DNA of 64,000 nucleotides from an uncultured Chloroflexia bacterium (GTDB lineage Bacteria; Chloroflexota; Limnocylindria; Limnocylindrales; CSP1-4): positions 480,697 through 544,696 of the forward strand of contig CAVZWI010000001.1 of assembly GCA_963778955.1 (NCBI GenBank), written 5' to 3'. The notes beneath the pieces are model-generated. The model was not told the origin of the DNA and searched no databases. It saw nothing but the letters and a program-made list of their open reading frames with translations. The translations under genes were made by a program, and so were the position numbers. How positions within the stretch are numbered: the stretch's first letter is position 1; each line of letters begins with the position of its first letter. Shown one piece after another: positions 19,571-34,413 of this stretch.

Positions 19571-21255
19571 GCGCGACGAGGCCCACCGTGGTCTCGGTCC
19601 GTACACGCATCCGTGGCATGGTGGCTGACGCTTGGGCTCAGGCGACCGAGTCAGGGGCATTGCCAGACATCGATGCCGAGCTTCGACCCCATATCGAGAT
19701 CGAGAGACCATCCGACCCGGACCATGGCGACATGGCCGCGAACCTGGCCATGCGGCTGGCTCGACCGATGCGACGTTCACCGTTGCAGATCGCCGAGGTG
19801 CTGGCTGAGAACCTGCGCGCCGTGGCCGTCGGTACTGCGATGACGGAGGTGCAGGTGGCGCCGCCGGGCTTCATCAACCTGCGGCTCTCCCCAGCGTGGC
19901 TGGAGGGCGTGCTGGATGAGGCCCGCGAGGCCGGCGATGCCTTCGGCCGAGTCACGCAGGAGCGGCCGCTGCATCTTGACATCGAGTTCGTCTCGGCCAA
20001 CCCGACCGGCCCGCTCCACGTGGGCAACGCTCGCGGCGCCTTCGTCGGCGACCTCTTGACTCGCGTGCTCGAGGGCGGCGGCCACACCGTCACGCGTGAG
20101 TACTACTTCAACGATTCGGGTGCCCAGATCCGCAATCTCGGTGCCTCGGTGGTCGCACGCCGAACGGCCCAGGAGGTACCCGCGGACGGCTACCGTGGCG
20201 GCTACGTCGAGGACCTCGCCGCCGAGTTGCCAGATGACGTTTGGGCTGCGGCCACCGTGGACGGGGCGGACCGCGACGGGATCGTCGCCGGGTGGGCTCA
20301 GGAGCGCGTCCGCGCCGGGATCGAGGAGAGCCTGGCGCGCCTGGGTGTCCACTTCGACGTGTGGAAGAGCGAGGCCAGCCTGCATCGCGATGGCTGGGTC
20401 ACACGTGCCGTGGGACGGCTGGCGGCGGGTGGACACATCTTCGAGCAGGATGGCGCGACCTGGTTCCGCTCCACCACCTTCGGTGACGACAAGGACCGGG
20501 TGGTGTTCCGCTCCAATGGCGACCCGACCTACTTCGCCTCCGACATCGGCTATGTCAGCGAGAAGTTCAGTCGCGGCTTCGACAAGCTCATCTACATCTG
20601 GGGAGCCGATCACCACGGAACCGTCGCCCGCGTCCGCAATGCGGCTGAGGCGATGGGTTTCGACAAGGATGCCGTGGAGATGCTGCTCGTGGCCTGGGTC
20701 CGCTTCGTGCGCGACGGCGTCGAGGTCCCCATGAGTAAGCGCTCAGGCGAGTTCCTGACGCTCGATGAGTTGCTCGAGGAGATCGGCGTGGATGCGGCCC
20801 GCTGGTCGTTCGCCTCGCGTGCAGCGAGTTCACCCATCGATGTCGATATCGAACTGGTGCGCAGGCAGTCGTCGGAGAACCCGGTCTACTACGTGCAGTA
20901 CGCACATGCCCGGATCTGCTCGATCCTGGCCAAGGCAGCCGCTGCGGGCCTGTCACCCGCGCCGAGCTTCAGCGGAGTGCTCCAGGGTGATGAAGTGGCC
21001 AGCGGCTTGGCCCGCGAGGTGCTGCGCCTCCCCGAGGTGGTCGAGGATGGCGCCCGGGCCGAGGAGACGCACGGCATCACTGCCTACGCCATGGAATTGG
21101 CGACGACGTTCCACGCCTTCTATCGCGATCGCCGTGTGGTCGATCTTGACGATCCCGCGACCTCAGCCGGCCGACTGGCCCTCATGGGCGTGACGCGCAG
21201 TGCTATCCGCAACGCCTTGGCCTTGCTAGGCATCTCGGCTCCCGAATCCATGTAG
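19567..21255 (+). CDS. argS: arginine--tRNA ligase
   Basis: EFVSANPTGPLHVGNAR, EYYFND, WGADHHG, MSKRSG, NPVYYVQYAHARICS, LGISAPESM. Confidence 0.97.
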   Translation: MSATRPTVVSVRTRIRGMVADAWAQATESGALPDIDAELRPHIEIERPSDPDHGDMAANLAMRLARPMRRSPLQIAEVLAENLRAVAVGTAMTEVQVAPPGFINLRLSPAWLEGVLDEAREAGDAFGRVTQERPLHLDIEFVSANPTGPLHVGNARGAFVGDLLTRVLEGGGHTVTREYYFNDSGAQIRNLGASVVARRTAQEVPADGYRGGYVEDLAAELPDDVWAAATVDGADRDGIVAGWAQERVRAGIEESLARLGVHFDVWKSEASLHRDGWVTRAVGRLAAGGHIFEQDGATWFRSTTFGDDKDRVVFRSNGDPTYFASDIGYVSEKFSRGFDKLIYIWGADHHGTVARVRNAAEAMGFDKDAVEMLLVAWVRFVRDGVEVPMSKRSGEFLTLDELLEEIGVDAARWSFASRAASSPIDVDIELVRRQSSENPVYYVQYAHARICSILAKAAAAGLSPAPSFSGVLQGDEVASGLAREVLRLPEVVEDGARAEETHGITAYAMELATTFHAFYRDRRVVDLDDPATSAGRLALMGVTRSAIRNALALLGISAPESM

Positions 21256-21293
21256 TCGACACGACTGCGGGAGGCGGAGCGACCTCGAACGGC

Positions 21294-21320
21294 GAAGGCC
21301 GGGCTCAAGGCCCGGCCTTC
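21294..21320. terminator. stem-loop between convergent argS and the PASTA gene
   Basis: GAAGGCCGGGC-TCAAG-GCCCGGCCTTC. Confidence 0.75.
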
Positions 21321-21346
21321 ACGGCATCAGCTTGACCTGGGTCCAG

Positions 21347-24300
21347 CTATGGCGTCGAGATAGCGTCTCCGAGGCCAAGAGCCCCGGCCACCGAGCCAAG
21401 GGTGGCATCGTCGCTGGTCAACAGGACCAGCACCGGATTCGAGGCCCCGGAGGAGACGTCTGCTTCGAGGACAGCGTGCGCACCCGGCAGGTCCGCGACC
21501 GCGGCATCAGCCGCGCTCACGAACTCACCGACATCGCCGGTCTTGTCCCACGTGGTCTGCCAGACGATGGCCCAGGAACCATCGGGCCCATCCAGGCTGA
21601 CGAGGCGATCTCCGCCCCAACCCGCAGCGGCCTTGTCGTCGCCGAGCCAAACCGCGGTCCGGAGCTCGCCCATGGTCTGCTGCCACTGTTCGCTCCAGCC
21701 CTGGCCCAGCGTGTTGGCGAACCCATCCATGGCCAAGGTCGTGGGCGCGTCATCGGGATATCGCTTGGGATGCAGGATCTGCTCGGTCGTCGCGGGCAGC
21801 TGACCCCAAGCGCCGTTCACGGCGTCCCAGCCTCCCTTGTTGCGAAGGAAGTCGACGAAGGACTGGCCCTCGACGAAGGGGAATGTGTACTCACGCTGCA
21901 GCAACTGCGGCATGGACTTCAGGATGCCATCGTTGCCGGGGACGACGACGCCATCCACCTTGGCCTGATTGCCTGAGTTCACGTTCTGAGCGGACCACTC
22001 GAGCATCGTGGCTGTGCCATCACCTTGATCGAGCGCGCTAGCGGCGAGCACGGCATCGCCGTTCGTGGGGTCATCGACCACACCTGCGTCAGCGCCAAAC
22101 GCTTGGTGTACGGCGGCCTGACCGAACTCGCGAGCGGCCTCGGCGCGTTGCGGCAGGTTGAGCTTGTCGATGCTCTCGAGGACGGACTGGCGATCACTAG
22201 ACGGGAGGTAGGTGATGGGCAGATCCTGCCCATAGAGCTTGTCGAGGAGGGAGGCGAGGTCATCGTCGTTGCCGAGCAGCCCCATGCGCTTGAGGGCGTC
22301 TTCCTCCTGCGTCAGCGTGGATGATGGGTAGAGGTTGTCGGCGCCCTGCCTGAGTAAGTCCGCTTGCTCGGCAGAGTTGGCGCCGTCGTATGGGGTATTG
22401 CCCAGATCCAACTCGCGGATCGCGGGCACCGTGAAAGCGACCGCATCCAACTGGCCGGATACCTGCCCGTTATCCAGGGTACCGCCCTGGCCATGAGGCT
22501 CGATCACCGGGCCTAGCGACACGACATAGTCGACGGCGCTGCCCTTGTCCAGCTCTGTCCCCGCCGGTGGGTCCTGGCTGATCACGACCCCGGCTGCAGC
22601 CGCATCGTTGGCCTCAGAGCGTTCACCGGGCTTCAGGCCCTCGGCCGCGATCGCGTCAAGTGCCGCGGCCTCGTCGGAGCCGACGACGTCGGGCACGGTG
22701 ACCTGCTTGGGACCCTTGCTGACGATGAGCGTGACCTCGGAGCCGACCTCGACGGTCTCGCCCGCGGCGGGTTCGGTCTTGACCGCGTCACCCGCGGGGA
22801 CCTTGCCGTTGGTGCGTTCGTCGAGGGTGACGCTGAGGCCCTGGTCGGTGAGTGCGGTCTGGGCGTCGGCGGCCGGCTGGCCGGCCACGTCGGGGATGGT
22901 GACCGCGGGTGGGCCGGAGCTGACGGTGAGGGCCACGGTGCTGTTCTGGTCGACCGTGCTGTCGGCGCCCGGATCCTGGGAGAGGACGGTGCCGGCGGGG
23001 GCCTCGGCCTCGGCCTGGCTGACCTCGCCCGGCTTGAGCCCGGCGTCCTTGATGGCGGTCTTGGCCGCGGCCTCGTCGGAGCCGACGACGTCGGGCACGG
23101 TGACCTGCTTGGGACCCTTGCTGACGATGAGCGTGACCTCGGAGCCGACCTCGACGGTCTCGCCCGCGGCGGGTTCGGTCTTGACCGCGTCACCCGCGGG
23201 GACCTTGCCGTTGGTGCGTTCGTCGAGGGTGACGCTGAGGCCCTGGTCGGTGAGTGCGGTCTGGGCGTCGGCGGCCGGCTGGCCGGCCACGTCGGGGATG
23301 GTGACCGCGGGTGGGCCGGAGCTGACGGTGAGGGCCACGGTGCTGTTCTGGTCGACCGTGCTGTCGGCGCCCGGATCCTGGGAGAGGACGGTGCCGGCGG
23401 GGGCCTCGGCCTCGGCCTGGCTGACCTCGCCCGGCTTGAGCCCGGCGTCCTTGATGGCGGTCTTGGCCGCGGCCTCGTCGGAGCCGACGACGTCGGGCAC
23501 GGTGACCTGCTTGGGACCCTTGCTGACGATGAGCGTGACCTCGGAGCCGACCTCGACGGTCTCGCCCGCGGCGGGTTCGGTCTTGACCGCGTCACCCGCG
23601 GGGACCTTGCCGTTGGTGCGTTCGTCGAGGGTGACGCTGAGGCCCTGGTCGGTGAGTGCGGTCTGGGCGTCGGCGGCCGGCTGGCCGGCCACGTCGGGGA
23701 TGGTGACCGCGGGTGGGCCGGAGCTGACGGTGAGGGCCACGGTGCTGTTCTGGTCGACCGTGCTGTCGGCGCCCGGATCCTGGGAGAGGACGGTGCCGGC
23801 GGGGGCCTCGGCCTCGGCCTGGCTGACCTCGCCCGGCTTGAGCCCGGCGTCCTTGATGGCGGTCTTGGCCGCGGCCTCGTCGGAGCCGACGACGTCGGGC
23901 ACGGTGACCTGCTTGGGACCCTTGCTGACGATGAGCGTGACCTCGGAGCCGACCTCGACGGTCTCGCCCGCGGCGGGTTCGGTCTTGACCGCGTCACCCG
24001 CGGGGACCTTGCCGTTGGTGCGTTCGTCGAGGGTGACGCTGAGGCCCTGGTCGGTGAGTGCGGTCTGGGCGTCGGCGGCCGGCTGGCCGGCCACGTCGGG
24101 GATGGTGACCGCGGGTGGGCCGGAGCTGACGGTGAGGGCCACGGTGCTGTTCTGGTCGACCGTGCTGTCGGCGCCCGGATCCTGGGAGAGGACGGTGCCG
24201 GCGGGGGCCTCGGCCTCGGCCTGGCTGACCTCGCCCGGCTTGAGCCCGGCGTCCTTGATGGCGGTCTTGGCCGCGGCCTCGTCGGAGCCGACGACGTCGG

Positions 24301-27300
24301 GCACGGTGACCTGCTTGGGACCCTTGCTGACGATGAGCGTGACCTCGGAGCCGACCTCGACGGTCTCGCCCGCGGCGGGTTCGGTCTTGACCGCGTCACC
24401 CGCGGGGACCTTGCCGTTGGTGCGTTCGTCGAGGGTGACGCTGAGGCCCTGGTCGGTGAGTGCGGTCTGGGCGTCGGCGGCCGGCTGGCCGGCCACGTCG
24501 GGGATGGTGACCGCGGGTGGGCCGGAGCTGACGGTGAGGGCCACGGTGCTGTTCTGGTCGACCGTGCTGTCGGCGCCCGGATCCTGGGAGAGGACGGTGC
24601 CGGCGGGGGCCTCGGCCTCGGCCTGGCTGACCTCGCCCGGCTTGAGCCCGGCGTCCTTGATGGCGGTCTTGGCCGCGGCCTCGTCGGAGCCGACGACGTC
24701 GGGCACGGTGACCTGCTTGGGACCCTTGCTGACGATGAGCGTGACCTCGGAGCCGACCTCGACGGTCTCGCCCGCGGCGGGTTCGGTCTTGACCGCGTCA
24801 CCCGCGGGGACCTTGCCGTTGGTGCGTTCGTCGAGGGTGACGCTGAGGCCCTGGTCGGTGAGTGCGGTCTGGGCGTCGGCGGCCGGCTGGCCGGCCACGT
24901 CGGGGATGGTGCGCTGGTTCGATCCTGTCGACAGGATGAGCGTCACCGGTGACTCGAGAGGTACCTCTGAACCTGCCGCTGGTTCGGTCTTGATGGCGTT
25001 GCCAGCAGCGATCTTCTCGTTTGACTGCTCAACGGTGTCACCCACGGTCAGACCTGCGGTCTCGATAGCCGTCACGGCGTCGTTTTGCGGCAAGTCACGG
25101 ACATCAGGGACATCGGCGTTTGGCGTGACGCCGAGGCTCGTGACATAGGCGACCGCGGAGCCCAGGGGCACCTCGGTGCCGGCGGCCGGATCGGAGCCGA
25201 TGACGTCGCCCGCGGCGATGCTGTCGTGGTATTCGCTGGTGACGTCACCGGCCACGAGGCCGACGTCGGTGAGCTTCTGCTCGGCATCGGTGGCGGGGCC
25301 CGAGAGGTCGGGCACGGCCACGGTGGGCACGGGCACGGCCACCTGCAGGGTGACGGTGGCGCCGACCGCGAGCTGGCTGTCCGCGGCGGGGTCCTGGCCG
25401 ACGATGGTGTCGGGCGCGGCGGCGTCGGTCTCGACGTCCTGCGTCTCGAGCAGCAGGCCGGCCGTATCGGCGGCGTCCTGCGCCGCGGCCAGGGTCAGGC
25501 CGCTGAAGTCGGGCACGGCCACGGTCTCGACGCCGAGGCTCGTGACATAGGCGACCGCGGAGCCCAGGGGCACCTCGGTGCCGGCGGCCGGATCGGAGCC
25601 GATGACGTCGCCCGCGGCGATGCTGTCGTGGTATTCGCTGGTGACGTCACCGGCCACGAGGCCGACGTCGGTGAGCTTCTGCTCGGCATCGGTGGCGGGG
25701 CCCGAGAGGTCGGGCACGGCCACGGTGGGCACGGGCACGGCCACCTGCAGGGTGACGGTGGCGCCGACCGCGAGCTGGCTGTCCGCGGCGGGGTCCTGGC
25801 CGACGATGGTGTCGGGCGCGGCGGCGTCGGTCTCGACGTCCTGCGTCTCGAGCAGCAGGCCGGCCGTATCGGCGGCGTCCTGCGCCGCGGCCAGGGTCAG
25901 GCCGCTGAAGTCGGGCACGGCCACGGTCTCGACGCCGAGGCTCGTGACATAGGCGACCGCGGAGCCCAGGGGCACCTCGGTGCCGGCGGCCGGATCGGAG
26001 CCGATGACGTCGCCCGCGGCGATGCTGTCGTGGTATTCGCTGGTGACGTCACCGGCCACGAGGCCGACGTCGGTGAGCTTCTGCTCGGCATCGGTGGCGG
26101 GGCCCGAGAGGTCGGGCACGGCCACGGTGGGCACGGGCACGGCCACCTGCAGGGTGACGGTGGCGCCGACCGCGAGCTGGCTGTCCGCGGCGGGGTCCTG
26201 GCCGACGATGGTGTCGGGCGCGGCGGCGTCGGTCTCGACGTCCTGCGTCTCGAGCAGCAGGCCGGCCGTATCGGCGGCGTCCTGCGCCGCGGCCAGGGTC
26301 AGGCCGCTGAAGTCGGGCACGGCCACGGTCTCGACGCCGAGGCTCGTGACATAGGCGACCGCGGAGCCCAGGGGCACCTCGGTGCCGGCGGCCGGATCGG
26401 AGCCGATGACGTCGCCCGCGGCGATGCTGTCGTGGTATTCGCTGGTGACGTCACCGGCCACGAGGCCGACGTCGGTGAGCTTCTGCTCGGCATCGGTGGC
26501 GGGGCCCGAGAGGTCGGGCACGGCCACGGTGGGCACGGGCACGGCCACCTGCAGGGTGACGGTGGCGCCGACCGCGAGCTGGCTGTCCGCGGCGGGGTCC
26601 TGGCCGACGATGGTGTCGGGCGCGGCGGCGTCGGTCTCGACGTCCTGCGTCTCGAGCAGCAGGCCGGCCGTATCGGCGGCGTCCTGCGCCGCGGCCAGGG
26701 TCAGGCCGCTGAAGTCGGGCACGGCCACGGTCTCGACGCCGAGGCTCGTGACATAGGCGACCGCGGAGCCCAGGGGCACCTCGGTGCCGGCGGCCGGATC
26801 GGAGCCGATGACGTCGCCCGCGGCGATGCTGTCGTGGTATTCGCTGGTGACGTCACCGGCCACGAGGCCGACGTCGGTGAGCTTCTGCTCGGCATCGGTG
26901 GCGGGGCCCGAGAGGTCGGGCACGGCCACGGTGGGCACGGGCACGGCCACCTGCAGGGTGACGGTGGCGCCGACCGCGAGCTGGCTGTCCGCGGCGGGGT
27001 CCTGGCCGACGATGGTGTCGGGCGCGGCGGCGTCGGTCTCGACGTCCTGCGTCTCGAGCAGCAGGCCGGCCGTATCGGCGGCGTCCTGCGCCGCGGCCAG
27101 GGTCAGGCCGCTGAAGTCGGGCACGGCCACGGTCTCGACGCCGAGGCTCGTGACATAGGCGACCGCGGAGCCCAGGGGCACCTCGGTGCCGGCGGCCGGA
27201 TCGGAGCCGATGACGTCGCCCGCGGCGATGCTGTCGTGGTATTCGCTGGTGACGTCACCGGCCACGAGGCCGACGTCGGTGAGCTTCTGCTCGGCATCGG

Positions 27301-30300
27301 TGGCGGGGCCCGAGAGGTCGGGCACGGCCACGGTGGGCACGGGCACGGCCACCTGCAGGGTGACGGTGGCGCCGACCGCGAGCTGGCTGTCCGCGGCGGG
27401 GTCCTGGCCGACGATGGTGTCGGGCGCGGCGGCGTCGGTCTCGACGTCCTGCGTCTCGAGCAGCAGGCCGGCCGTATCGGCGGCGTCCTGCGCCGCGGCC
27501 AGGGTCAGGCCGCTGAAGTCGGGCACGGCCACGGTCTCGACGCCGAGGCTCGTGACATAGGCGACCGCGGAGCCCAGGGGCACCTCGGTGCCGGCGGCCG
27601 GATCGGAGCCGATGACGTCGCCCGCGGCGATGCTGTCGTGGTATTCGCTGGTGACGTCACCGGCCACGAGGCCGACGTCGGTGAGCTTCTGCTCGGCATC
27701 GGTGGCGGGGCCCGAGAGGTCGGGCACGGCCACGGTGGGCACGGGCACGGCCACCTGCAGGGTGACGGTGGCGCCGACCGCGAGCTGGCTGTCCGCGGCG
27801 GGGTCCTGGCCGACGATGGTGTCGGGCGCGGCGGCGTCGGTCTCGACGTCCTGCGTCTCGAGCAGCAGGCCGGCCGTATCGGCGGCGTCCTGCGCCGCGG
27901 CCAGGGTCAGGCCGCTGAAGTCGGGCACGGCCACGGTCTCGACGCCGAGGCTCGTGACATAGGCGACCGCGGAGCCCAGGGGCACCTCGGTGCCGGCGGC
28001 CGGATCGGAGCCGATGACGTCGCCCGCGGCGATGCTGTCGTGGTATTCGCTGGTGACGTCACCGGCCACGAGGCCGACGTCGGTGAGCTTCTGCTCGGCA
28101 TCGGTGGCGGGGCCCGAGAGGTCGGGCACGGCCACGGTGGGCACGGGCACGGCCACCTGCAGGGTGACGGTGGCGCCGACCGCGAGCTGGCTGTCCGCGG
28201 CGGGGTCCTGGCCGACGATGGTGTCGGGCGCGGCGGCGTCGGTCTCGACGTCCTGCGTCTCGAGCAGCAGGCCGGCCGTATCGGCGGCGTCCTGCGCCGC
28301 GGCCAGGGTCAGGCCGCTGAAGTCGGGCACGGCCACGGTCTCGACGCCGAGGCTCGTGACATAGGCGACCGCGGAGCCCAGGGGCACCTCGGTGCCGGCG
28401 GCCGGATCGGAGCCGATGACGTCGCCCGCGGCGATGCTGTCGTGGTATTCGCTGGTGACGTCACCGGCCACGAGGCCGACGTCGGTGAGCTTCTGCTCGG
28501 CATCGGTGGCGGGGCCCGAGAGGTCGGGCACGGCCACGGTGGGCACGGGCACGGCCACCTGCAGGGTGACGGTGGCGCCGACCGCGAGCTGGCTGTCCGC
28601 GGCGGGGTCCTGGCCGACGATGGTGTCGGGCGCGGCGGCGTCGGTCTCGACGTCCTGCGTCTCGAGCAGCAGGCCGGCCGTATCGGCGGCGTCCTGCGCC
28701 GCGGCCAGGGTCAGGCCGCTGAAGTCGGGCACGGCCACGGTCTCGACGCCGAGGCTCGTGACATAGGCGACCGCGGAGCCCAGGGGCACCTCGGTGCCGG
28801 CGGCCGGATCGGAGCCGATGACGTCGCCCGCGGCGATGCTGTCGTGGTATTCGCTGGTGACGTCACCGGCCACGAGGCCGACGTCGGTGAGCTTCTGCTC
28901 GGCATCGGTGGCGGGGCCCGAGAGGTCGGGCACGGCCACGGTGGGCACGGGCACGGCCACCTGCAGGGTGACGGTGGCGCCGACCGCGAGCTGGCTGTCC
29001 GCGGCGGGGTCCTGGCCGACGATGGTGTCGGGCGCGGCGGCGTCGGTCTCGACGTCCTGCGTCTCGAGCAGCAGGCCGGCCGTATCGGCGGCGTCCTGCG
29101 CCGCGGCCAGGGTCAGGCCGCTGAAGTCGGGCACGGCCACGGTCTCGACGCCGAGGCTCGTGACATAGGCGACCGCGGAGCCCAGGGGCACCTCGGTGCC
29201 GGCGGCCGGATCGGAGCCGATGACGTCGCCCGCGGCGATGCTGTCGTGGTATTCGCTGGTGACGTCACCGGCCACGAGGCCGACGTCGGTGAGCTTCTGC
29301 TCGGCATCGGTGGCGGGGCCCGAGAGGTCGGGCACGGCCACGGTGGGCACGGGCACGGCCACCTGCAGGGTGACGGTGGCGCCGACCGCGAGCTGGCTGT
29401 CCGCGGCGGGGTCCTGGCCGACGATGGTGTCGGGCGCGGCGGCGTCGGTCTCGACGTCCTGCGTCTCGAGCAGCAGGCCGGCCGTATCGGCGGCGTCCTG
29501 CGCCGCGGCCAGGGTCAGGCCGCTGAAGTCGGGCACGGCCACGGTCTCGACGCCGAGGCTCGTGACATAGGCGACCGCGGAGCCCAGGGGCACCTCGGTG
29601 CCGGCGGCCGGATCGGAGCCGATGACGTCGCCCGCGGCGATGCTGTCGTGGTATTCGCTGGTGACGTCACCGGCCACGAGGCCGACGTCGGTGAGCTTCT
29701 GCTCGGCATCGGTGGCGGGGCCCGAGAGGTCGGGCACGGCCACGGTGGGCACGGGCACGGCCACCTGCAGGGTGACGGTGGCGCCGACCGCGAGCTGGCT
29801 GTCCGCGGCGGGGTCCTGGCCGACGATGGTGTCGGGCGCGGCGGCGTCGGTCTCGACGTCCTGCGTCTCGAGCAGCAGGCCGGCCGTATCGGCGGCGTCC
29901 TGCGCCGCGGCCAGGGTCAGGCCGCTGAAGTCGGGCACGGCCACGGTCTCGACGCCGAGGCTCGTGACATAGGCGACCGCGGAGCCCAGGGGCACCTCGG
30001 TGCCGGCGGCCGGATCGGAGCCGATGACGTCGCCCGCGGCGATGCTGTCGTGGTATTCGCTGGTGACGTCACCGGCCACGAGGCCGACGTCGGTGAGCTT
30101 CTGCTCGGCATCGGTGGCGGGGCCCGAGAGGTCGGGCACGGCCACGGTGGGCACGGGCACGGCCACCTGCAGGGTGACGGTGGCGCCGACCGCGAGCTGG
30201 CTGTCCGCGGCGGGGTCCTGGCCGACGATGGTGTCGGGCGCGGCGGCGTCGGTCTCGACGTCCTGCGTCTCGAGCAGCAGGCCGGCCGTATCGGCGGCGT

Positions 30301-31956
30301 CCTGCGCCGCGGCCAGGGTCAGGCCGCTGAAGTCGGGCACGGCCACGGTCTCGACGCCGAGGCTCGTGACATAGGCGACCGCGGAGCCCAGGGGCACCTC
30401 GGTGCCGGCGGCCGGATCGGAGCTGAGGACATGGCCTGCGACGATGCTGTCATCGCTGGCTTCGGTGACATCACCCGGCACGAGGCCAGCGTCAGCGAGA
30501 GCACGCAGGGCGTCGGCCTCGGGCAGATCGACGAGATCGGGCACGGCCACCGGCTCGGGACCGAGCGAGAGGACATAGTCCACCGCGGAACCGGGATCGA
30601 CCTCGGCATCGGCCGCGGGATCGGAGCTGAGGACATGGCCTGCGACGATGCTGTCATCGCTGGCTTCGGTGACATCACCCGGCACGAGGCCAGCGTCAGC
30701 GAGAGCACGCAGGGCGTCGGCCTCGGGCAGATCGACGAGATCGGGCACGGCCACCGGCTCGGGACCGAGCGAGAGGACATAGTCCACCGCGGAACCGGGA
30801 TCGACCTCGGCATCGGCCGCGGGATCGGAGCTGAGGACATGGCCTGCGACGATGCTGTCATCGCTGGCTTCGGTGACATCACCCGGCACGAGGCCAGCGT
30901 CAGCGAGAGCACGCAGGGCGTCGGCCTCGGGCAGATCGACGAGATCGGGCACGGCCACCGGCTCGGGACCACGGCTCACGATGAGCGCGATCCTGCTGCC
31001 AGGCGCCAGCTCGGCATCCGCCTCTGGGTCGGTGCTCATGACGACACCGGCCATGACCGTGTCACTGGGCTCTTCGGTCGATCGATACCACCCTGAAGCC
31101 AGCGTCCCTGATGGCCTGGACGGCGGCGTCCTGCGAGAGTCCCACCAGGTCGGGCACTGGGTCAGTCGGAACAGCGGCCGCTACGGAGAGCTCGATCGTG
31201 GAACCAACGTCCACCGACTCGCCTGGTGGAGGATCCTGACCGATAACGGTGTCAGGCTCGACTTCGTCGGTCTCTACCTGAGTGACACGGATGACGAGTC
31301 CGGAGTCAGCGGCCGTCGTCTCCGCGTCCGCCAGCGTCCGGCCCTGGAAGTTGGGCGTGTCGACCGTAGCGATCGCAGATGGTTCGGCGCTGGGTACCTC
31401 GGTCATGACCGGTGATGGCGACGGGCTCGCATTCACATCGGTCGGTGAATCGAACGGTCGGAACAGGATGAGCACGATGGCCAATGCCACGATGAAGGCG
31501 CCCACGAGGATGCCGCCGACCAGCAGGACAGGCGTGCCCTCCTCGGGTGGCTCACCGCCATCAGCGGAAGGCGGGATGGGGGACTCGAGGGTCATCTCGG
31601 GCTTGGCGGCCAGTGCGGCCAGTGCGGCCTCAGTGGCCTCCGGGTCAGGCGCGACGGGCGTGGTCGTCCAGGCAGCTCCAGCAGCAGCGGCGTCAGCGGC
31701 CTCGGCTTCTGTCTCAGCCACGGTCCCCGCGACCGCCTCTTCCTCGGCCGCAGGCGCCTCCGCGTCCACCTCTGCATCCGCGCTCGCGTCGGGCCCAGCT
31801 TCCTCGCTGGGCTCAGCAGCCACGGCCTCGGCGCTCGACGAGGCCGCGGCTTCTGACTGCTCCGCGGCCGACTCGGCATCTTCAGGTTGGGGTGACGTCG
31901 AGGAGGCGTCTGTGGACGGTGTGGGGTCGCCGAGGATCCGGCTTCTGGTCAGTCAT
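21347..31956 (-). CDS. giant (~3,500 aa) single-TM protein with ~44 PASTA domains and a C-terminal degenerate metallopeptidase-like domain; frameshifts near 31935 and 31075
   Basis: ORFs 21347..31054 and 31062..31823 join (…AGFRVVSID|EEPSDTVMAGVVMSTDP…); start MTDQKPD at 31956; TM VLLVGGILVGAFIVALAIVLILF; repeated VPDxxGxxxxxAxxxLxxxGL...QDPxAG...VxLxVSxG. Confidence 0.88.
22662..24911. repeat. coding tandem array A: ~5.6 copies of a 402-bp unit (2 PASTA domains)
   Basis: Unit recurs at 22662, 23064, 23466, 23868, 24270 and 24672; no differences seen by eye. Confidence 0.95.
25127..30423. repeat. coding tandem array B: ~13.2 copies of a different 402-bp unit (2 PASTA domains)
   Basis: Identical 124-aa shadow ORFs every 402 bp from 25176 to 30000 (13 copies). 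Confidence 0.96.
30414..30970. repeat. coding tandem array C: ~2.7 copies of a 204-bp unit (1 PASTA domain)
   Basis: GGATCGGAGCTGAGGACATGG at 30414, 30618 and 30822. Confidence 0.93.
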
Positions 31957-32096
31957 GGCAGGCGGACCTTACGGGAGTGGGCCTCGTCATGCGAGTACCC
32001 CGACCGGTCCTTCTGGGCTGATACCGACGCAAGTGTCCGTTTCTTCATCGTCCGCCGCTCCTCGCTTCACTCGCCGGCGGCTCGAGATGTCAGTCG

Positions 32097-33437
32097 TCAG
32101 ATGCCGAGCGCCACCTCAACGGCACCCAATGTCTCCTCACTGTCGGCCGCCAGTACGAGTACTGGAGAGGATAGACCTCCCGCGATATCGGCATCCGTGA
32201 CGGAGTGCGCACCGGGCAAGTCCTTCATGGCATCCCGCGCGGCTTGATGGAACTCCTTCTGGTCGGCTCCGGTGTCCCAGTCGGTCTGCCAGACCACGGC
32301 CCAGGCACCATCCGGACCATCCAGGCTTAGTAATCGATCGCCGCCCCAACCAGCCGCCGCGGAGGCATTCGGCAGTTGTCCGGGCAGGCCCGGGAACAAC
32401 GACTGGCGCTTCTTGCCGTCTGCCACCCACACGCCGATCTGCATCTCGCCCAGGGTCTGCTGATAGCTGGTCGACCAGTCGGCACCGAGGGTCGCGCCGA
32501 CGTCCGGCAGGACGATCTCGACAGGTACCTCATCGGGATACAACTCGGGGTGCAGGATCTGCTCGGTCGAGACCGGCTGTGCATCCCACGCCTGATCGAC
32601 CGCTGCCCAGTCGCCTCGACCACGCACTGCCATCACATACGCGTAACCGTCGAGGTAGGGGAACTCAAGCTGTCGCTGCAGGATCATCGGCATGCGTTCC
32701 AGCGCCTTCTGGTCCTGCTTCGTAATCAATTCTGCCGAGACGCGCAGCAGGTCGGTCAGCTTGAGCTCACGAGTCGCCCAGTCATACATCACCGCGGTGG
32801 CATCGCCCTCGATGAGGGCCTGTTGGGCGAGGATGGCGTCCGACTGATCGAGGTCATCGATGCGGCGACCCTCCAAGTCCCACTGGGCATCCTGAAGTGC
32901 ATGATCATATTCATGTGCGACGACGATGGACTCCAGCGCCCCGATCTTGTCGATGGGACCGATGAGCGAGAACGTCTTGGTCAGCGGGTCGTAGTAGGCC
33001 AGCACCTGGCTGTCGTAGATCGAGAGGATGAGCGCTTCAAGGTCGTCATCCGGCCCCAGGAGACCAAGGCGCGTGAAGGCCGCGTCCTCAGCCTGGACGT
33101 AGGCATCGCTGTACTCAGCGCGGAACAGGGCGCGCAACTCATCGAGGAAGGCCTGGCTGTCGATGACGCGATAGGCGACGCCCTCGGCCGGCGGCAGCCC
33201 ACGCACGGGATGGACGCTACCGATGATCTGACCGACCCTCTTCGCCATCTTGGCGTCGAAGCCTTCCGGCAGAGGCGTCGCCACGGCCGCGAGGCTGGCC
33301 TGGGGCGAGGGCGAAGTGTCCTGGGCGCTGGCGAGCCCGACTCCGACCGATGCCAGCAGCACGACTGACAAGAGTGCCGCCGGAAGGAAGAGGCGATGGC
33401 CAGAGCATAGGTGCAGAGCGTGATCGAGTGGTGCCAT
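32097..33437 (-). CDS. secreted putative zinc metallopeptidase (HExxH...E), paralogous to the C-terminus of the giant PASTA protein
   Basis: Signal-like LLSVVLLASVGVGLASA; LAYYDP, AHEYDHALQD, ALIEGDAT, FPYLDG, PVSTEQILHP, AAGWGGDR, WQTDWD. Confidence 0.82.
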   Translation of the reverse strand: MAPLDHALHLCSGHRLFLPAALLSVVLLASVGVGLASAQDTSPSPQASLAAVATPLPEGFDAKMAKRVGQIIGSVHPVRGLPPAEGVAYRVIDSQAFLDELRALFRAEYSDAYVQAEDAAFTRLGLLGPDDDLEALILSIYDSQVLAYYDPLTKTFSLIGPIDKIGALESIVVAHEYDHALQDAQWDLEGRRIDDLDQSDAILAQQALIEGDATAVMYDWATRELKLTDLLRVSAELITKQDQKALERMPMILQRQLEFPYLDGYAYVMAVRGRGDWAAVDQAWDAQPVSTEQILHPELYPDEVPVEIVLPDVGATLGADWSTSYQQTLGEMQIGVWVADGKKRQSLFPGLPGQLPNASAAAGWGGDRLLSLDGPDGAWAVVWQTDWDTGADQKEFHQAARDAMKDLPGAHSVTDADIAGGLSSPVLVLAADSEETLGAVEVALGI

Positions 33438-33570
33438 GGGTCTGCATTCTGCCAGCCGGACGCGACTACCACCAGCGGAGGCCATCTCCGAGTCCCCGGA
33501 ATACCGATGAGATGTGCGTTTCTTCATCATTCGAGGTCTGGTGCCTTCACGCTCGACAGCTAGAGTTCTC

Positions 33571-33663
33571 GGCACGGAACCGTGAAGCCAACCTTCTCAG
33601 TTCCCTCTCCCTCCCTCTGGAACGAGGGGCGCTGATTGGGCAGGCGCCCCTCGTTCCTTCTTT
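33571..33663 (+). ncRNA. candidate small RNA or attenuator with a C/U-rich linker and an intrinsic terminator
   Basis: TAGAGT -10-like at 33561; 5' hairpin GGCACGG-AA-CCGTGaaGCC; linker TTCCCTCTCCCTCCCTCT; 14-bp stem 33619-33657 followed by TTCTTT. Confidence 0.45.
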
Positions 33664-33726
33664 GAATCTCTCGTTCCTTCGGTCTTGTCGCTGTGACGAG
33701 CGGGCGCCTGTGGCACCATCGCGTCC

Positions 33727-34413
33727 ATGGAAATCACCTGGTATGGCGGCTCATGCGTTCGTCTCAAGGGACGTGAGGGGGTCGTCGCCGCAGACCCGTT
33801 CCGGTCGATCGCTGGGCCTACCGGACGTGGTCTCACCGCGGATATCGTCTCGTACGGCCACCCCGATGAGTCGGTGGCAGAGGGTCGTGGCAGCAAGGCC
33901 AAGACCGGCGTCACTTCGCGACTACTGGGCGTGCCGTTGCCGACCAGTCTGGAGAACGCATTCGTACTCGATTCACCGGGCGAGTACGAAGTCCACGATG
34001 TCATGACGACCGGCGTGCGCACGTTCCGTGACGATGAACAGGGCGCGGCGCAGGGGTCGAGCACCGCATACGTCTATGAGCTCGACGGCGTCTACGCCGC
34101 CCACCTCGGCGCCATCGGGCATCGCCTCGATCAGGACACCATCCGTGAGCTTGGCCACGTGGATGTGCTCTGCCTGGGCATCGGGCCACAGCTCAGCGCC
34201 GCGACCGCAGCTGAGATCGTCGGCCAGCTCGATGCCCACATGGTGGTACCGATGCCACTCAGCGATGCCGCGGTCGGACCGGGGGCTGACCTTGAGAAGT
34301 TCCTCAAGGAGATGAGCGTGCCCGATCTGCAGTCGGTCAGCAGCCTGAAGGTAACCATCTCGACGATCCCCAACGAAACGACTGTCGTCCTGCTGGAGCA
34401 GCGCGGCCGCTGA
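33727..34413 (+). CDS. MBL-fold protein (Lactamase_B_3-like), metal motifs partly degenerate
   Basis: MEITWYGGSCVRLKG, DPF, ADIV, DSPGEYEV, AHLGAIG, VVPM. Confidence 0.82.
   Translation: MEITWYGGSCVRLKGREGVVAADPFRSIAGPTGRGLTADIVSYGHPDESVAEGRGSKAKTGVTSRLLGVPLPTSLENAFVLDSPGEYEVHDVMTTGVRTFRDDEQGAAQGSSTAYVYELDGVYAAHLGAIGHRLDQDTIRELGHVDVLCLGIGPQLSAATAAEIVGQLDAHMVVPMPLSDAAVGPGADLEKFLKEMSVPDLQSVSSLKVTISTIPNETTVVLLEQRGR

Follow-up and report, generated by a model that had tools for sequence, protein, structure and literature searches.

There is good documentation, mostly from eukaryotes, of pseudo-enzymes that pair with active relatives, and EnvC and NlpD are degenerate LytM factors; to our knowledge, clear bacterial extracellular cases of an enzyme paired with a pseudo-enzyme are few, and the cell-surface biology of uncultured soil and sediment Chloroflexota is largely unknown. 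PASTA domains are known as cell-wall-sensing modules of kinases and penicillin-binding proteins (PBPs). Pseudopeptidases that act as partners of active relatives, including those of the prokaryotic M16B two-gene operons, are described in PMC11266112, the available part of which does not mention EnvC, and Hvo_1808, a Sec-dependent archaeal lipoprotein of Haloferax, is given as of unknown function in the accessible part of PMC2945643. Here we describe a two-gene locus from an uncultured soil or sediment Chloroflexia bacterium of the Limnocylindrales, located in a 64,000-nucleotide stretch that we refer to as the window (GenBank assembly GCA_963778955.1, contig CAVZWI010000001.1, positions 480,697 to 544,696). 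The genes lie in series on the minus strand. The first, or free, gene encodes a protein with an intact HExxH zinc-site motif, and the second, or giant, gene encodes an anchored PASTA stalk whose C-terminal tip is, as read from its residues, a pseudo-enzyme paralogue of the adjacent HExxH protein. The two constitute a real, conserved enzyme/pseudo-enzyme pair, and we found no paper describing it. The features that define the pair are as follows (window coordinates; G-numbers denote genomes of the genus, G000 being the present one).

32097–33437, minus strand: free gene, a 446-residue DUF8230/Hvo_1808-like protein (translation)
32901–32915, minus strand: HEYDH of the free gene (coordinate check)
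32808–32810, minus strand: third-ligand Glu of the free gene, in LIEGD (coordinate check)
21347–31956, minus strand: giant gene, about 3,535 residues if two extra bases are ignored (translations and DNA alignment with G010 and G001)
21350–22507, minus strand: tip domain, a DUF8230 paralogue without zinc ligands (translation, BLASTP and AlphaFold2)
22118–22132, minus strand: REFGQ of the tip, in place of HExxH (coordinate check)
22025–22027, minus strand: Gln of the tip (LDQGD), in place of the ligand Glu (coordinate check)
21875–21877, minus strand: Phe of the tip (FPF), in place of the family Tyr (FPY) (coordinate check)

The tip domain makes up the last ~385 residues of the giant protein and matches the free protein by BLASTP with 141 identities over 358 positions (39%, E 6e-77; giant residues 2889–3228 against neighbour residues 135–492). 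This similarity is far beyond chance, and every motif string that an initial annotation of the window had quoted from the two proteins is present in the translations. The site motifs of the free protein are HEYDH and IEGDAT, in place of which the tip has REFGQ and DQGDGT, a replacement that would make zinc binding by the head impossible in the canonical way. A search of the genome found these two copies of the family domain and no third. The free protein itself begins with a signal or anchor segment, continues with a zincin-fold domain and ends in an alpha/beta subdomain. Its N-terminus is signal-peptide-like, with a hydrophobic stretch that runs to LASA and is followed by QD, and from this segment the protein would be exported and soluble. 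The ligand Glu lies 30 residues past the second His of HExxH and, by motif and predicted fold, the free copy is most likely a zinc peptidase.

Both domains belong to PF26686 (DUF8230 in the Atlas output, Pfam 38.1), an assignment that is indirect but strong because close relatives carry PF26686 as a precomputed domain: it is present on 120 of 120 listed homologues of the free protein (relatives being up to 89% identical) and on 19 of 20 listed longer, fused homologues, with Atlas feature matches scoring 0.96. A Pfam scan of the two domains returned no families, using a copy of the database that seems to be without PF26686. The NF038145 model ('Hvo_1808 family surface protein') matches the free copy with 144.6 bits (E 5e-42) and the tip with 86.3 bits (E 3e-24), both below the cutoff of 200, and neither domain is therefore an equivalog of Hvo_1808. 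A profile search against 1.84 billion representatives recovered 11,739 family clusters, the representatives being clustered at 50% identity (E up to 1e-3). HExxH...[ED]G[DE] is present in 135 of the best 150 of these representatives, the other 15 being two fragments and 13 with site substitutions. The family norm of an HExxH followed ~30 residues later by E-G-D is thus present in the free copy and absent from the tip. We found no papers naming PF26686 or DUF8230; in the literature searched there was no report of peptidase or other activity for any family member, and, among the papers listed, nothing relevant on the combination of PASTA domain, Chloroflexi and metallopeptidase.

The AlphaFold2 models are of high confidence (predicted local distance difference test 95 and predicted TM-score 0.92 for the tip; predicted local distance difference test 90 for the free copy), and the top Foldseek match of the tip model is PDB 3cmn. 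Superposition with VIA-align gave Z scores to 3cmn of 14.4 for the free copy (root-mean-square deviation 4.8, 219 residues aligned) and 12.3 for the tip (5.4, 222 residues aligned). Z scores to the catalytic domains of M1 aminopeptidases are 8–9 (tip 8.5–8.9), a range that, as the tool warns, may reflect a common arrangement, followed by collagenases at ~7–8.6 and thermolysin at 7.0. In these models the N-terminal two-thirds of both copies adopt a predicted zincin fold. At the level of sequence, the family profile shows marginal similarity to 3cmn (E 0.012) in an alignment that matches the Glu-Gly of the ligand helix, and a search of PDB chains with the free protein gave only chance-level matches (E of at least 0.47). 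The C-terminal ~130 residues (21350–21750 in the tip, 32100–32520 in the free gene) form an alpha/beta subdomain, which holds GWGGD, the most conserved motif of the tips that have lost the site. This subdomain is weakly similar to the extracellular sensor domain of PknH, to TiME and to RseB/MucB, with Z scores of 6–7 (tip against PknH 6.8) that may reflect a common arrangement only.

The state of the zinc site was then compared across an alignment of 78 domains, of which 66 HExxH-bearing rows served as reference and 11 are orthologous tips. The His pair of HExxH and the downstream Glu are 100% conserved in 66 of 66 reference rows. The tips read as follows.

First His: Arg in 11/11 tips
Catalytic Glu: Glu in 10/11 tips, Ala in 1/11
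Second His: Gln in 4/11 tips, Arg in 7/11
Ligand Glu: Gln in 8/11 tips, Glu in 2/11 (G010 and G001), Ala in 1/11
Ala after GD: Gly in 11/11 tips
Tyr of FPY: Phe in 9/11 tips, Tyr in 2/11

The loss of both zinc His residues, which the initial annotation had reported for the window, is therefore a property of every aligned tip. Its statement that the third-ligand Glu is also lost holds for the window, where the residue is Gln, and for 9 of the 11 tips; G010 and G001 keep the Glu. The same annotation had suggested examining whether the loss of HExxH is conserved in orthologues under purifying selection, and this is what we observe. The motif windows of the G004, G006, G011 and G022 tips show the same substitutions. 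Among 20 longer fused proteins in the databases, 15 are tip orthologues (P0124–P0138, 51–71% identical to the tip); 15 of 15 are without HExxH, and all read A-A-R-E/A/D-x-x-Q/R ... G-D-G-T. Of the 57 columns with a conservation of at least 85% in the 66 HExxH-bearing rows, the tips keep 46; the 11 that have changed lie for the most part in the HExxHALQD and EGDA helices and in FPY. Ratios of non-synonymous to synonymous substitution (dN/dS; Nei-Gojobori, with G000, G010 and G001) are 0.146–0.171 for the tip and 0.153–0.163 for the free gene, showing that purifying selection acts on the tip as strongly as it does on the active gene. An objection that orthologues might retain HExxH, leaving a change peculiar to one strain, fails because all of the direct orthologues examined have lost the His ligands, with Arg at the first His in each aligned tip. 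On this comparison of sequences the tip domain is a maintained pseudo-enzyme and the loss is not strain-specific.

A further set of family members that are not linked to PASTA domains (P0143, P0180, P0201, P0261, P0287 and P0290, some with weak TPR matches) also lacks a full HExxH; the site has therefore been lost repeatedly in the family.

We examined 24 other genomes of the genus, 23 of which contain the family, and fetched 28 regions. With the present genome included, the 25 genomes are distributed as follows ('dead' denoting heads that have lost HExxH).

Arg-type dead tip plus free HExxH copy: 15 of the 25 genomes, G000 included
Dead tip and free copy in one locus: 13 of those 15, the two being on separate short contigs in G004 and G006
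Other dead tethered types plus an unlinked HExxH copy: G007 and G012
Active tether only: G017, G018, G019, G020 and G023
HExxH copies, unclassified: G015 and G016
Family match absent: G003 (74% completeness)

In the 13 genomes with a single locus the free gene lies directly upstream of the giant gene on the same strand, and every genome with a dead tether also has an HExxH copy (17/17). PASTA-linked heads with an intact HEYDH...EGDAT are found in G017–G020 and G023 and in the database proteins P0139–P0142, P0144 and P0145. By profile search, G017–G020 and G023 each contain exactly one family member, in assemblies of 74–92% completeness. The tethered protein of G019 has the layout of the giant protein in the window, with an M-T-D start, a long N-terminal region and a membrane helix leading to L-L-R-P and then PASTA domains. 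Because relatives within the same genus have the PASTA protein, anchored and with HEYDH intact in its head, as their sole family member, tethering predates inactivation, and the tethered form was once active. The order of events proposed initially, a duplication that yielded a soluble protease and a tethered decoy, is not supported in that form, given these intact tethered heads without a second copy.

Two trees of the domain were calculated under LG+G4, a quick tree of 73 rows that included every third free HExxH representative, and a careful tree of 50 rows. In the careful tree all 17 dead PASTA heads form one clade (support 97/96) and the neighbour-type free copies form another (100/100), and the dead, neighbour and active tethered clades all leave a single unresolved node. 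The quick tree places all PASTA-linked heads in one clade with a support of 80 in the Shimodaira–Hasegawa-like approximate likelihood ratio test (SH-aLRT); as the careful tree leaves that grouping unresolved, we do not claim it from the domain tree. Forcing the dead heads and the neighbours together costs 5.6 log-likelihood units (approximately unbiased (AU) test, p 0.21), so a sister relation between them is neither shown nor rejected, and an old tandem duplication of leader and head is possible. Recent copying between the tip and its neighbour can be excluded because the two are 39% identical and sit on long stems of 0.6–0.7 changes per site each. The original description of the tip as a copy of the gene next door is thus correct in that the two are paralogues; a recent copy it is not, and a sister relation between them is allowed by the AU test without being demonstrated.

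G007 (L040) and G012 (L043), together with P0183, P0189 and P0223, represent two more kinds of dead PASTA-tethered head with other replacement residues. These heads group with the type found in the window (97/96) and have no adjacent free copy. Their HExxH partner is of an unlinked paralogue type, which also occurs as a third copy in G008, G002 and G004.

The giant gene consists of an acidic N-terminal region, a membrane anchor and a very long array of PASTA domains that ends in the tip.

31461–31529, minus strand: predicted single transmembrane helix (read from sequence)
22508–31361, minus strand: stalk of ~45 PASTA domains (Pfam and Tandem Repeats Finder)
30406–30970, minus strand: tandem array, 204 nucleotides x 2.8 (Tandem Repeats Finder, 99% match)
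25127–30451, minus strand: tandem array, 402 nucleotides x 13.2 (Tandem Repeats Finder, 99% match)
22662–24911, minus strand: tandem array, 402 nucleotides x 5.6 (Tandem Repeats Finder, 100% match)

The longest open reading frame (ORF) in this region, 21347–31054 (3235 residues), is only a part of the gene, the real start of which is the ATG at 31956. DNA alignment with G010 and G001 reveals two 1-nucleotide insertions, one near 31933/31934, seven codons past the ATG, and one at 31079. As a result the gene is spread in the assembly over three frames, namely the 7-codon start, ORF 31062–31823 and ORF 21347–31054. ORF 31062–31823 encodes the acidic N-terminal region, the one transmembrane helix and two PASTA domains; it stops in the middle of a PASTA domain, and the same domain resumes in the frame of the large ORF. 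Both insertions lie within or beside a GATC, and a link to methylation would be speculation. The acidic region preceding the helix is ~140 residues long and bears a conserved AAWTTTPVAPDPEATEAALAALA stretch. This N-terminus and helix are also present in G010, G001, G024 and G009, and a more diverged version is found in the tethered proteins of G019, whose head is intact, and of G007, whose head is dead. The orthologous giant ORFs with the same N-terminus are uninterrupted, and their lengths of 3812 (G001), 3226 (G024), 3061 (G009) and 2945 residues (G010) come from a single assembly per species. Pfam detects 42 PASTA stretches in the 3235-residue ORF, 2 in the upstream ORF and one more across the frame break. 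Neither Pfam nor NCBIfam finds a kinase or transpeptidase domain in the giant protein, the 3235-residue ORF containing PASTA domains and weak sub-threshold matches only. The upstream ORF matches NF033483 over its PASTA part with 58.3 bits, the cutoff being 450.

The strand opposite the PASTA arrays also contains long open frames, including one of 2003 residues at 25085–31096 and about twelve ORFs of 124 residues at 25176–30374 that repeat with the 402-nucleotide period, all on the plus strand. These are taken as by-products of a G+C-rich repeat and not as genes.

The two genes are preceded by a common upstream element.

33513–33528, minus strand: 16-mer core before the free gene, within a ~40-nucleotide block ~75–90 nucleotides before the start codon (leader alignment)
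32034–32049, minus strand: 16-mer core before the giant gene (leader alignment)
31954–32047, minus strand: 31-codon upstream ORF (MKKRT...VRLP) before the giant gene, its TGA overlapping the giant ATG

The 16-mer has just two occurrences in the 3.25-megabase genome at up to 1 mismatch, with none for the reversed control. In all 12 of the other paired loci both genes are preceded by it, as is the active tethered gene of G019 and of G023 (up to 2 substitutions in each case). In the giant-gene leaders of 13 genomes the first 35 alignment columns are nearly all invariant, at a synonymous divergence (dS) in coding sequence of 0.4–1.8. An ATG inside the block opens the upstream ORF, with GTG instead in 4 of 28 copies. 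Before the giant gene, 13 genomes conserve the start and end of this ORF but vary in its middle, and it may be a coupling or leader ORF. Before the free gene, the length and frame of the corresponding ORF vary, which argues that the element is conserved at the nucleotide level. There is no Rfam match in 31800–33900 at E up to 1. For the 13 giant-gene leaders RNAalifold proposes one 9-bp long-range stem with no compensatory changes, and a structure beyond sequence conservation is not supported. Scans of 21000–33900 for sigma-70 promoters and intrinsic terminators returned no sites of either type and are uninformative. We read the element as a putative regulatory site shared by both genes; it may also be left over from a duplication in which the leader was copied along.

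Two alternative starts for the free gene were considered. The in-frame GTG at 33575 is probably not used, because the upstream reading is out of frame in G010 and G001, and a true start at 'MKKRT' was rejected, the reading being out of frame or stopping early in G010, G001 and others. No functional link to the pair was seen for the neighbouring genes (ArgRS, MBL-fold proteins, a formiminotransferase and others).

The locus is a conserved two-gene unit of this Limnocylindria-type genus, and the explanation that we regard as probable is that it consists of an exported zincin and an anchored PASTA stalk with a non-catalytic paralogous head, which are co-regulated and have descended from a tethered active enzyme. 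The first gene encodes a zincin-fold, PF26686/Hvo_1808-like protein, predicted to be exported, that with its intact HExxH...E would supply catalysis. The second encodes a predicted single-pass protein of ~3,535 residues in which ~45 near-identical PASTA domains would form a long stalk of variable length, and the distal head would be a non-catalytic module that binds something at a distance from the cell. The ancestor would have been a tethered active enzyme, with the loss of catalysis on the tether tolerated only where the genome also encodes an active copy that is not tethered, and both genes would be co-regulated and expressed together via the shared upstream element. The head might bind a substrate-like peptide, a component of the envelope or the free enzyme itself.

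Several observations weigh against this explanation. The giant gene is frame-broken twice in the assembly, and the case for an error uses low-depth contigs, one of which possibly comes from the source sample. The 17/17 complementarity is drawn from related genomes and may go back to one loss event, given the support of 97/96 for the dead clade; since the genomes are related, it does not amount to 17 independent events. In the dead clade the helix that once held HExxH shows no more than average conservation (entropy 0.93, domain mean 0.91; 1 of its 19 positions invariant), and there is thus no specific support for a 'substrate groove' having been kept where the active site was. Constraint in this clade is strongest in GWGGD, QQTxGE, FPF and TEQILHP, which are also family-wide motifs. 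The catalytic Glu is retained in 10/11 tips and the ligand Glu in 2/11. Finally, peptidase activity, even that of the free copy, is deduced from motif and fold.

A more specific form of the two-gene-unit model, which we offer tentatively, is a division of labour derived from one tethered zinc peptidase, in which a free secreted copy retains catalysis and a dead, stalk-borne copy of tunable length serves for capture or docking, the two being switched by a dedicated cis element. The dead head would then capture the same ligand, or keep the free enzyme at a distance from the cell, on a stalk of perhaps ~100–200 nm if the PASTA domains are extended (a rough estimate, not computed). If true, the locus would encode a new kind of extracellular enzyme/pseudo-enzyme system in bacteria, and PASTA domains would for the first time be seen in a structural, non-sensor role.

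Alternatively, the dead head could be a docking or activating subunit for the free enzyme, as in the M16B pairs, with the activity then presented at a fixed distance from the cell. The adjacency of the genes on the same strand in 13 genomes, an upstream element common to both genes and unique in the genome, the presence of an HExxH copy in 17/17 genomes with a dead tether, and the precedent of pseudopeptidases that partner active relatives, including the M16B two-gene operons (PMC11266112, as far as available), are all consistent with this. The dead tethers of G007 and G012 argue the other way, having a different, unlinked HExxH paralogue type as partner. A complex prediction for the tip (residues 20–397) with the free enzyme (50–446), made with alignments and without controls, returned 0.00 in two runs and is neutral on binding. 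On balance we consider docking unlikely.

It is less probable again that the giant protein is a substrate of the free enzyme, which would trim or release the stalk or head, as the initial annotation had proposed. Co-occurrence and probable co-regulation are compatible with such processing; relatives with an active tethered head have no free copy, and a free processing enzyme is therefore not a general requirement for the stalk.

Similarly improbable is that the giant gene has recently become a pseudogene through two real frameshifts, so that the pair is no longer functional in this genome. The two 1-nucleotide insertions relative to G010 and G001, and the three frames that they create, would be expected in that case. 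As a check, contigs from four public metagenome runs (two studies), 95–100% alike, were placed on 30960–32160. Base 31934 is omitted in 3/3 covering contigs (2 studies) and base 31079 in 1/1, in contigs that are of low depth and whose best-matching source may be the source sample itself. Because these public contigs are without the extra bases, the two frame breaks are probably assembly errors or a strain variant. The remaining 9.7 kb of the gene translate with no stops and no further frame breaks. In the assemblies of G014 (L031), G021 (L032), G011 (L033) and G022 (L034), too, free or tip copies are spread over different frames, which suggests frequent indel errors of long-read-like assemblies and not gene decay.

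That the tip is still catalytic through other ligands (the old HExxH Glu, the His and Glu of TEQILHP, and the Asp of GDGT) is highly improbable: the catalytic Glu persists in 10/11 tips and TEQILHP and GD are invariant in the dead clade, but the first His has become Arg in 11/11 tips, the second Gln or Arg and the family Tyr Phe in 9/11, the old active-site helix has relaxed to average conservation, and TEQILHP and GWGGD are equally conserved in HExxH-bearing members and so do not mark a replacement site of the dead clade.

The two-gene unit is of wider relevance in several respects. A single genus offers a series comprising a tethered active enzyme alone, a tethered dead head with an adjacent free active copy, and a tethered dead head with an unlinked active copy, so that the sequence of steps by which a pseudo-enzyme arises can be tested directly. 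Some 45 consecutive PASTA domains are used as what appears to be a stalk of variable length. The pair also provides a first functional handle on an uncharacterised family of more than 11,000 sequence clusters.

Among known systems, 3cmn, the 'putative hydrolase with a novel fold' from Chloroflexus aurantiacus, has the fold predicted by the models for the N-terminal subdomain, but 3cmn, the M1 aminopeptidases, the M9 collagenases and thermolysin are all without the C-terminal alpha/beta subdomain of the window's domains. With respect to the Hvo_1808 family, the tip in the window lacks the family's HExxH...E signature. The PASTA Ser/Thr kinases and PBPs (PknB/Stk1 type, NF033483) are, like the giant protein as predicted from its sequence, single-pass with extracellular PASTA repeats; they have a kinase or transpeptidase domain, whereas the giant protein has neither. 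PASTA kinases carry few PASTA domains each, compared with ~45 here. The giant protein resembles the periscope or fibrillar stalk proteins (SasG, Rib, Sgo_0707), as these are presented in the available part of PMC8201768, in having tandem folded domains that are near-identical in DNA, in the large length differences between relatives (2945–3812 residues here) and in placing a distinct functional domain at the end far from the anchor. It differs in that its stalk is made of PASTA domains, a term with no occurrence in the main text of PMC8201768 or PMC9210967 as available. It is also anchored by an N-terminal membrane helix, its head therefore being C-terminal, whereas periscope proteins have a C-terminal wall anchor, and its head is a pseudo-peptidase in place of the known adhesin domains. 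The closest parallel for the gene pair is provided by the M16B alpha/beta operons, in which, according to the accessible part of PMC11266112, a catalytic metallopeptidase likewise lies adjacent to a conserved paralogue without the zinc motif. The present pair belongs to another fold family, and here the inactive partner is fused to a giant stalk.

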